Positions 38,974-39,722 of a stretch of 64,000 nucleotides of DNA are shown here, piece after piece. The translations under genes and the position numbers were made by a program. The DNA is from Escherichia phage MirsaeidiM_Esher1. Below the pieces are notes generated by a model. That model saw only the letters and a program-made list of their open reading frames with translations, did no database searches and was not told the origin of the DNA. The stretch lies in sequence record PQ438048.1. One strand, given 5' to 3'. Within the stretch, counting starts at the first letter, position 1, and each line of letters starts with the position of its first letter.

Positions 38974-39309
38974 TTAAACAAGTTTCTTAAACAAATCTGA
39001 CATTTTATTTGTCTGGTTTTGATGTTTTCTCTTTATTGAAGTGTCTTTAACATACATGGCTTCAACATACTCTTCGTATGTTAAATACTCATATAGTTTT
39101 AAAAGATAATCTACACCGTAGTTATCCAATGTTTTCAGTGTTTCCGAGGTATCTTTAACGACTTTGCAAAGAATAACCTCATACCACTTCAAAGTAAGGG
39201 TTTTCGTTGCTGTGTCGATAGCATGTTCAATCGCAGGTGTTAATTTGCTGCTAAACTCGTCATCGCCTGAAGCTGTGTGAACAGTTTTCCGAAACCTCGT
39301 TTGAAAAAA
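38974..39309 (-). CDS. tail assembly chaperone, -1 frameshift extension (GT-type product, joined to 39309..39722)
   Basis: -1 frame is open from the slippery heptamer T_TTT_TTC (39303-39309) through to stop at 38974, continuous with listed ORF 38974..39192. Confidence 0.6.
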   Translation of the reverse strand, partial: FFQTRFRKTVHTASGDDEFSSKLTPAIEHAIDTATKTLTLKWYEVILCKVVKDTSETLKTLDNYGVDYLLKLYEYLTYEEYVEAMYVKDTSIKRKHQNQTNKMSDLFKKLV

Positions 39310-39722
39310 GGGCCGTAGTTTACCTCCAGAACTTTAGCCGTAAGATCTAACACTAGTTCTGGGTGAGCCATAAATAATTCATCAAAATTTTCTGCAACGT
39401 TATAACCGTCTTGAGTATAAACCTCATCTAAAATTTTACGCAAAAAGACAGTTAAATTCTTTTCTTCCAAACCTGCAAAAAGTTGGATCAGTGCCATAGC
39501 AATACGTGACTCAAGGTCTTCGTCTGCGGACATTGTTGCTGTGCTATACATAGTCATAGGAACAACCAGAACACTACCCAATTCTGGAATCCTGTCAAAC
39601 ACTTTAGATGGACTCCACTTCATAATACGGAAAGTAACAGATCTGTTTCCATCTAACGGAATCTCAACTACTTCTTCTGGTCGAGCATATTTTTGAATTG
39701 TGTTATCTTGTTCTTGTGACAT
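39240..39722 (-). CDS. tail assembly chaperone (G-type product)
   Basis: 160 aa gene between tube and tape measure; contains slippery site near 3' end. Confidence 0.6.
   Translation of the reverse strand: MSQEQDNTIQKYARPEEVVEIPLDGNRSVTFRIMKWSPSKVFDRIPELGSVLVVPMTMYSTATMSADEDLESRIAMALIQLFAGLEEKNLTVFLRKILDEVYTQDGYNVAENFDELFMAHPELVLDLTAKVLEVNYGPFFKRGFGKLFTQLQAMTSLAAN
39303..39309 (-). other. programmed -1 ribosomal frameshift slippery heptamer U_UUU_UUC
   Basis: Minus-strand codons CCT TTT TTC (plus 39303-39311); classic X_XXY_YYZ site. Confidence 0.6.

Follow-up and report, generated by a model that had tools for sequence, protein, structure and literature searches.

In the tail module of Escherichia phage MirsaeidiM_Esher1 (sequence record PQ438048.1), from which a stretch of 64,000 nucleotides (nt), referred to here as the window, was analysed, two open reading frames (ORFs) in different frames sit between the tail tube gene and the tape measure protein gene. 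The question raised by this locus is whether the second ORF is a gene in its own right or the 3' part of a longer chaperone protein, made by those ribosomes which change frame before the end of the first. Such an arrangement is known as G/GT, and its translational frameshift is conserved in the tail assembly genes of double-stranded DNA phages (Xu, Hendrix & Duda 2004, summarised in PMC5009743); a first-pass annotation of the window had proposed it for this locus. The results described below make it very probable that a programmed ribosomal -1 frameshift takes place at 39309-39303, in the tail assembly chaperone gene of a myovirus. The comparison with related sequences strongly supports this interpretation, since the reading frames, the register of the shift site, its conservation and the coding signature of the downstream (T) segment agree with each other. 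Judged from its sequence, the window is a Phapecoctavirus of the subfamily Stephanstirmvirinae (phAPEC8-like myoviruses, with genomes of about 150 kb); a 4.8-kb stretch around the locus shares 100% identity with Escherichia phage PNJ1809-36 and 99.3% with phAPEC8.

Gene G occupies 39240..39722 on the minus strand, from the ATG at 39722 to the TAA at 39242-39240, and encodes by normal translation a protein of 160 amino acids (aa) whose C-terminal end is ...EVNYGPFFKRGFGKLFTQLQAMTSLAAN, followed by the stop. This protein matches the Pfam family Phage_TAC_15 (E 1e-23), which identifies the upstream ORF as a tail assembly chaperone, so that the gene directly preceding the tape measure gene is, as the first-pass annotation had it, a tail chaperone gene. 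The slippery heptamer T_TTT_TTC was found at 39303..39309 (minus strand), with the coordinates and the zero-frame codons GGC CCT TTT TTC AAA that the first-pass annotation had given, and its register is that of an X_XXY_YYZ site, with TTT in the P-site and TTC in the A-site in the zero frame. The heptamer lies inside the overlap of the two frames, 24 nt past the opening of the -1 frame and 20 codons ahead of the G stop. A TAA of the -1 frame at 39334..39336 (minus strand) sets the upstream limit for a productive -1 shift; from 39333 onwards, that frame is open as far as the TAA at 38976-38974, with no stop between, and thus runs into the ORF ending at 38974, as had been claimed. The -1 frame overlaps G by 91 nt and continues for 87 codons beyond the G stop, leaving 21 nt to the tape measure start, and the +1 frame reaches just 3 codons beyond the G stop.

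A -1 shift at the heptamer, with base 39303 being read twice, predicts a GT fusion of 140 + 109 = 249 aa beside the 160-aa product, in close agreement with the length of about 250 aa anticipated for the long form. The T segment comprises 109 codons of the -1 frame, from the CAA at 39303-39301 to the final TAA (38974..39303, minus strand), and includes a stretch, 39240..39302 on the minus strand, which would be dual-coding: the zero frame gives the tail of G (KRGFGK...AAN and the stop) and the -1 frame gives QTRFRKTV.... The two products are predicted to differ in their tryptic peptides, the junction of GT giving VLEVNYGPFFQTR and G alone giving VLEVNYGPFFK. In addition, a second heptamer, C_CCT_TTT, overlaps the first at 39306..39312 (minus strand) and is a candidate alternative or additional shift site, since a shift there would lead to the identical protein; its presence is limited to Stephanstirmvirinae-type loci, that is, those where the preceding codon is CCT. 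This overlapping heptamer had been missed in the first-pass annotation.

In the mechanism proposed, the majority of ribosomes would read G from 39722 to its stop at 39240 and release the 160-aa chaperone, and a minority would slip, the tRNA-Phe on the P-site TTT and that on the A-site TTC re-pairing with TTT TTT, one base further back. The overlapping C_CCT_TTT is an equally good candidate for the shift. After the shift, translation would resume at the CAA beginning at 39303 and end at the -1-frame TAA, so that GT would consist of G residues 1-140 followed by the 109-aa T segment. Apparently, neither a hairpin nor a pseudoknot on the 3' side is involved, and the likely helper would be a Shine-Dalgarno (SD)-like GGAGGT, pairing with the 16S ribosomal RNA (rRNA) of the elongating ribosome. 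By analogy with the lambda proteins gpG and gpGT, the tape measure protein would be covered by G and by the G part of GT, the T part would bring in the tube protein for the tail to polymerise up to the measured length, and neither G nor GT would remain in the virion. The binding partners expected from the same analogy are the tape measure protein for the G domain and the tube protein for the T domain. A hint on the absence from the virion is given by the record of phage CB7, in which the remark 'MS/MS confirmed' (tandem mass spectrometry) stands on the sheath and the tube and not on the two chaperone ORFs.

The conservation of the shift site was assessed on homologous loci taken from annotated phage records and IMG/VR contigs, which amounted to 46 non-redundant loci with 30 unique local sequences and with G-protein identities to the window down to about 24%. 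TTTTTTC is present in the identical register in all 46 loci. The codon before it is CCT, TGT or AGT (Pro, Cys or Ser), always ending in T though the residue differs, and the invariant Phe-Phe of the protein is always encoded by TTT and then TTC. Neighbouring conserved residues, on the other hand, vary synonymously among the 30 unique sequences, Tyr being encoded by TAC in 23 and by TAT in 7, and the V/I position by six codons. In the relatives, the -1 frame opens 9-69 nt ahead of the heptamer (mostly 9-24 nt); in those checked, it continues for about 73-97 codons past the G stop, the +1 frame closing within 1-19 codons, and stops 0-79 nt ahead of the tape measure start, with Rheinheimera phage Barba5S as the exception. 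In the Barba5S locus (L054), an HNH endonuclease gene (1505-2143, opposite strand) is placed between the end of T and the tape measure gene, and the gap is 742 nt. In-register TTTTTTC is also found in the Felix O1-like phage JLBYU32, in the Mooglevirus Mordin and in Aeromonas phage 2L372D, and the arrangement as a whole is kept across Stephanstirmvirinae, Vequintavirinae, Felix O1-like and further phages. The proposal that the locus has the conserved G/GT arrangement is therefore supported by the register of the site, by a coding -1 extension without a start of its own and by conservation in diverged relatives. Moreover, in two distant homologues the heptamer itself has been replaced by another within a few codons of the equivalent place: Barba5S has an in-register G_GGA_AAG directly before the conserved FR..PSG motif of its -1 frame, and Vibrio phage 249E41-1 has an in-register A_AAT_TTT. 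A heptamer whose sequence is swapped and whose X_XXY_YYZ register is kept is a prediction of ribosomal slippage and not of slippage by the RNA polymerase.

This last point bears on the best surviving alternative, transcriptional slippage, according to which the RNA polymerase would add an extra U on the T6 run and the ordinary translation of such transcripts would give the same 249-aa GT. The site is indeed a homopolymer (U6 in the messenger RNA, mRNA), conserved in every one of the 46 loci, and the amount of product required could be small, since a few percent of GT may suffice if the G:GT ratio is near that of lambda, about 30:1 (PMC5009743); in addition, E. coli genes contain fewer UUUUUUU than expected in each of the three frames, for which slippage is a possible reason (PMC4066793). 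Nevertheless, the bacterial examples described involve runs of 9 A or T (PMC5009743), whereas here the T-run never exceeds 6 in the 30 unique local sequences and its seventh base is invariably C. The replacement heptamers of the distant homologues hold homopolymers of only 3-4 nt with the register kept, and an SD-like element 9-14 nt ahead of the site, such as the one described below, has no role in transcription. Transcriptional slippage is thus considered very unlikely.

The ribosomal frameshift, for its part, requires that the -1 frame be translated as protein from the heptamer onwards. An alignment of the 30 unique T segments in the -1 frame showed them to share an RFR motif that follows the shift site at once, then a linker that is variable and rich in Gly/Ser, next about 60 aa forming a conserved domain, and lastly a basic tail, with conservation at the protein level extending across subfamilies. 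Downstream of the G stop, position 3 of the -1-frame codons dominates the substitutions in 12/12 pairs of relatives (differences at codon positions 1/2/3 of, e.g., 22/9/45, 9/11/42 and 18/9/53), a pattern by which the -1 region is taken to evolve as protein, under protein-coding selection. The T segment matches PHROG 16039 (E 9.5e-45), labelled in PHROG as of function unknown, and its AlphaFold (AF2) model is all-helical and weak (predicted local distance difference test, pLDDT, 72; predicted template modelling score, pTM, 0.41), the five models disagreeing. Close to the site, GGTTT at 39296-39292 is invariant in 29 sequences, coding for Gly-Phe in frame 0 and for Arg-Phe in frame -1, which points to a dual-coding constraint from two to three codons past the heptamer. 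The longer GGTTT(C)GG at 39289-39296, 6-9 nt past the heptamer, consists of near-invariant nucleotides throughout the family and reads Gly-Phe-Gly in frame 0 and Arg-Phe-Arg in frame -1. Its invariance is explained by dual coding, and it may also take a direct part in the slippage, e.g. as a spacer sequence.

The same region is presented in GenBank and RefSeq (phAPEC8 and related phages) as a separate 'hypothetical protein', a 72-aa ORF at 38974..39192 on the minus strand with a TTG start, and gene callers likewise annotate it on its own, with lengths of 64-85 aa in the different genomes. If two separate genes were present, this ORF would be translated alone from its TTG and no fusion would be made. 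That TTG at 39192 is the first candidate start in T, 37 codons past the shift site, but it has no SD sequence: its anti-SD energy is +0.1 kcal/mol, against -5.8 to -6.4 kcal/mol at the starts of G, tape measure and tube genes. A conserved start codon or ribosome-binding site ahead of T was looked for across the relatives and none was found, the candidate positions differing from genome to genome; in K54_rec5, L023 and L031, 58-83 codons separate the shift site from the first start, which falls within the conserved domain or beyond it. Furthermore, the conservation of the -1-frame protein sets in at the heptamer, where the RFR motif precedes every possible start, and the -1 frame stays open in all loci through regions annotated as intergenic. 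An independent second gene is, for these reasons, highly improbable, and 38974..39192 would be better re-read as the 3' part of GT than as a gene of its own. The record of phage rV5 (L007, 951-1319) offers a parallel, since its ORF50, an overlapping 'hypothetical protein', is started at a CTG 3 nt before the heptamer and so takes up the longest open -1 frame; ORF50 is, on this reading, the T segment of a GT fusion. A fusion of G and T in a single frame was not found either, as a search with the GT query in 5.8 billion protein clusters returned 41 homologues, all of 158-175 aa and covering the G part only.

The heptamer by itself is not rare. In the 48 long ORFs of the window, about 50 kb of coding sequence, 74 in-register X_XXY_YYZ heptamers were counted, from which a chance expectation of about 0.13 per 30-codon window is calculated; it is the comparison with relatives that raises the site above chance. 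The only other in-register TTTTTTC in these ORFs lies at 14580-14586 (minus strand), within an 891-aa ORF at 12801-15476; there, the -1 frame meets a stop after 4 codons and no SD-like element stands upstream (0.1 kcal/mol). A slip at 14586-14580 would merely truncate the product of the 891-aa ORF. Phe-Phe pairs in the long ORFs are encoded by TTT-TTT in 3/39 cases and by TTT-TTC in 7/39, against about 14 and about 9 calculated from codon usage (TTT makes up 60% of Phe codons), which suggests a genome-wide selection against shift-prone U-runs. The conserved TTT-TTC of G stands out against this avoidance. A null distribution for the length of alternate-frame extensions past stops, drawn from all ORFs of the window, was confounded by real overlapping downstream genes and was left unused. 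Although Phe-Phe is invariant in the protein and in-register heptamers are common in the window, the idea that nothing is recoded, the heptamer being simply the codons of a conserved Phe-Phe and the open -1 frame a relic or an effect of chance, has hardly any probability, because the residues dictate neither TTT-TTC (fixed in every lineage in spite of its 7/39 share) nor the T before it, purifying selection with codon periodicity and a conserved domain are seen in the -1 region, and the control TTTTTTC at 14586 runs into a -1 stop after 4 codons.

With regard to the elements which could promote a ribosomal -1 shift here, both heptamers of the window, U_UU.U_UU.C and C_CC.U_UU.U, fall within the efficient H_HH.U_UU.Y class measured in E. 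coli, where U_UU.C ranks second among A-site tetramers in its proneness to shift, and insertion sequence (IS) elements make use of U_UU.U_UU.C (PMC4066793). SD-like elements are reported to stimulate -1 shifts at a spacing of 9-14 nt (PMC5009743). The candidate 5' stimulator of the window is the GGAGGT at 39322..39327 on the minus strand (codons CTG GAG GTA), which stands 12-13 nt 5' of T_TTT_TTC and 9-10 nt 5' of C_CCT_TTT (13 and 10 nt, respectively, when counted from GGAGG), and so within that range. Its pairing with the 3' end of 16S rRNA is predicted at -10.7 kcal/mol, a strength reached by 0.2% of background windows, and anti-SD energies of -6 kcal/mol or lower occur at the site in 19/26 unique relatives versus 7.6% of the background. 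The choice of CTG-GAG for Leu-Glu would be expected in about 4% of cases from the codon usage of this AT-rich genome (0.157 x 0.258). GGAGG with a 13-nt spacer also recurs in rV5, Felix O1-like phages, Mordin and the Vibrio phage. That GGAGGT acts as a 5' stimulator of the -1 shift can, from this evidence, reasonably be inferred.

A 3' stimulator, by contrast, was sought in several ways with a negative outcome. Single-sequence folds of 43-113 nt past the heptamer, computed for the window and five relatives, were no more stable than shuffled sequences (z from -0.25 to +1.15; e.g. 0.33, 0.66 and 0.98), no stem-loop or pseudoknot of the dnaX/IS type was found 5-9 nt past the heptamer, and an Rfam scan of 38800-39900 gave nothing relevant, the only matches being two sub-threshold small RNA ones over the terminator-like hairpin between the tube gene and G. 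Tentatively, it is possible that Felix O1-like, rV5-like and phAPEC8-like phages and the Vibrio phage have all retained a minimal two-part signal that lacks any 3' RNA structure and is made up of GGAGG 13 nt upstream and the heptamer, even where T_TTT_TTC became A_AAT_TTT. If this were true, a large clade of myoviruses would constitute a natural series in which to study -1 frameshifting stimulated by rRNA-mRNA pairing and nothing else, and the tandem C_CCT_TTT_TTC of the phAPEC8 group would offer two consecutive chances to slip.

Several observations weigh against the ribosomal frameshift or reduce the force of the evidence for it. The counts of conservation come from related sequences and not from independent events, and the T6 run could, in principle, allow slippage of the RNA polymerase with the identical product. 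The SD-like element overlies conserved residues (Leu-Glu-Val/Ile/Ala) and is absent from Certrevirus, ChuuTotoro, the Klebsiella K54_rec5 group, Aeromonas 2L372D and Barba5S; being missing in several lineages, it cannot be essential everywhere. No conserved 3' structure was detected by RNAalifold, with 0 pairs in 29 family members and 0 in 11 Stephanstirmvirinae-type sequences, and without such a stimulatory structure the frameshift efficiency may be low. Literature searches on the phAPEC8-like and rV5-like groups brought up no data from reporters or ribosome profiling and no junction peptide. Moreover, none of the 16 records examined (phAPEC8-like, Justusliebigvirus, rV5-like, Seunavirus, Certrevirus and related phages) carries an annotated joined gene.

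The programmed -1 frameshift can also be placed among known systems. The heptamer of lambda G/GT is G_GGA_AAG. The window resembles lambda in its two overlapping ORFs between tube and tape measure genes, the first of which belongs to a chaperone family; it differs in its heptamer, T_TTT_TTC, in the Pfam match of its G, Phage_TAC_15 being a different family of tail assembly chaperones, and in being a contractile-tailed myovirus of about 150 kb, where the partner would be a tube within a sheath. Among E. coli systems, the cassettes of dnaX and IS elements likewise hold an SD-like sequence 9-14 nt 5' of a slippery heptamer, which in IS elements can be U_UU.U_UU.C. In dnaX there is a 3' stem-loop as well, and shifting proceeds at about 50%; the window, in contrast, has no detectable 3' structure, and its SD-like element is not universal in the family.

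The closest annotated case is that of Citrobacter phage Mordin (Mooglevirus, Felix O1-like; NC_041977.1, YP_009606600.1), where RefSeq gives a joined tail assembly chaperone coding sequence (CDS) whose end is the end of the -1 frame. Mordin has a homologous tail module, an in-register TTTTTTC within the motif ANFGSFF, GGAGG 13 nt upstream and a -1 ORF reaching to the tape measure start. It differs from the window in its G of 133 aa, in its joined CDS of about 212 aa (calculated from the coordinates), in its genome of about 89 kb and in its low G identity, Felix O1-like G proteins being only about 27% identical to the query from Certrevirus CB7; the join is annotated in Mordin, unlike in the phAPEC8-like and rV5-like records examined. 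In addition, a conserved -1 frameshift in the tail assembly chaperone was proposed in December 2025 for Vandenendeviridae (phage Adele) and Andersonviridae, described as related to Vequintavirinae (PMC12846349). In that paper, too, a downstream 'hypothetical protein' was re-read as the C-terminal domain of a long isoform, the -1 frame being uninterrupted in all genomes and a poly-T standing at the 3' end of the short gene; the motif given is GTTTTT, whereas here the full heptamer T_TTT_TTC is invariant (TGT TTT TTC in Vequintavirinae), and Stephanstirmvirinae and Phapecoctavirus apparently lie outside the coverage of that paper. A search of the literature for a frameshift in Phapecoctavirus, Stephanstirmvirinae or Vequintavirinae gave nothing specific, the matches dealing with host receptor mutations or with sister families. 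A different solution is found in some T4-like phages, which have the same functional need for short and long chaperone isoforms in a large myovirus and make them from separate genes (Vladimirov, Gautam & Davidson 2022, as described in the PRFect paper, PMC10885494); this does not apply here, since no single-ORF long form exists among the 41 homologues. With the kind of mechanism being textbook knowledge in lambda, with the join in the Mordin RefSeq record and with the 2025 paper, the locus is best regarded as an unannotated case of a known mechanism.

In practical terms, the consequences concern annotation above all. The correct feature for the window would be complement(join(38974..39303,39303..39722)) with ribosomal_slippage. 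The locus is matched by at least 64 near-identical Phapecoctavirus records and by several hundred from related coliphages that are therapeutic candidates (Justusliebigvirus, Vequintavirus, Seunavirus and others), and in the 16 records examined the T part is an orphan 'hypothetical protein' of arbitrary length or is missing. The understanding of tail assembly is left unchanged and specialists will not be surprised, but the case would be a well-supported and deeply conserved addition to the G/GT paradigm in large contractile-tailed phages. It also provides a natural case for testing if -1 frameshifting can be stimulated by a 5' SD-like element where a 3' structure is lacking.

As regards the surrounding module, the order on the minus strand is sheath, tube, terminator-like hairpin, 160-aa chaperone ORF, short ORF and tape measure. 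The tail sheath gene is located at 41667-40294, and the tube gene, encoding 159 aa, at 39768..40247, both on the minus strand. The tube protein matches PHROG 280 (E 3.1e-35, virion structural protein); its score against Pfam KPP10_Orf10, 24.4 bits, is just under the 25-bit cutoff, and its homologues are labelled tail tube or major tail protein in the records of SKA64 and phAPEC8_ev052. The tape measure gene (36965..38953, minus strand; 662 aa) was identified by a full-length match to PHROG 16051 and by its RefSeq annotation. Its TTG start at 38951-38953 has GAGGAA ahead of it, with an anti-SD energy of -5.9 kcal/mol, and RefSeq uses the identical start.

The hairpin between the tube gene and G, at 39743..39762 on the minus strand, resembles an intrinsic terminator, and a terminator is annotated after the tube gene at the equivalent position in Citrobacter phage Mordin; its stem is symmetric and scores on both strands. 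A second terminator-like hairpin, at 36941-36958, directly follows the tape measure gene, both hairpins are annotated in phAPEC8, and together they flank the unit formed by G, GT and the tape measure gene on either side. The hairpin at 39743-39762 probably reduces how much transcription reaches G, GT and the tape measure gene, which fits with the chaperones and the tape measure protein being needed in smaller amounts than the tube protein.

Finally, the locus of these enterobacterial phages is also carried by records under other host names, namely several named as Campylobacter phages (A110a, C3, C9, A12a and others), the Acinetobacter phages ABPW7 and ABPH49 and Enterococcus phage IME_EF3. 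The DNA of ABPW7 is 99.4% identical to the window, and the protein identities of the 'Campylobacter' records equal those of coliphages of the Justusliebigvirus and rV5 groups. All these records look like mislabelled hosts or contaminants.

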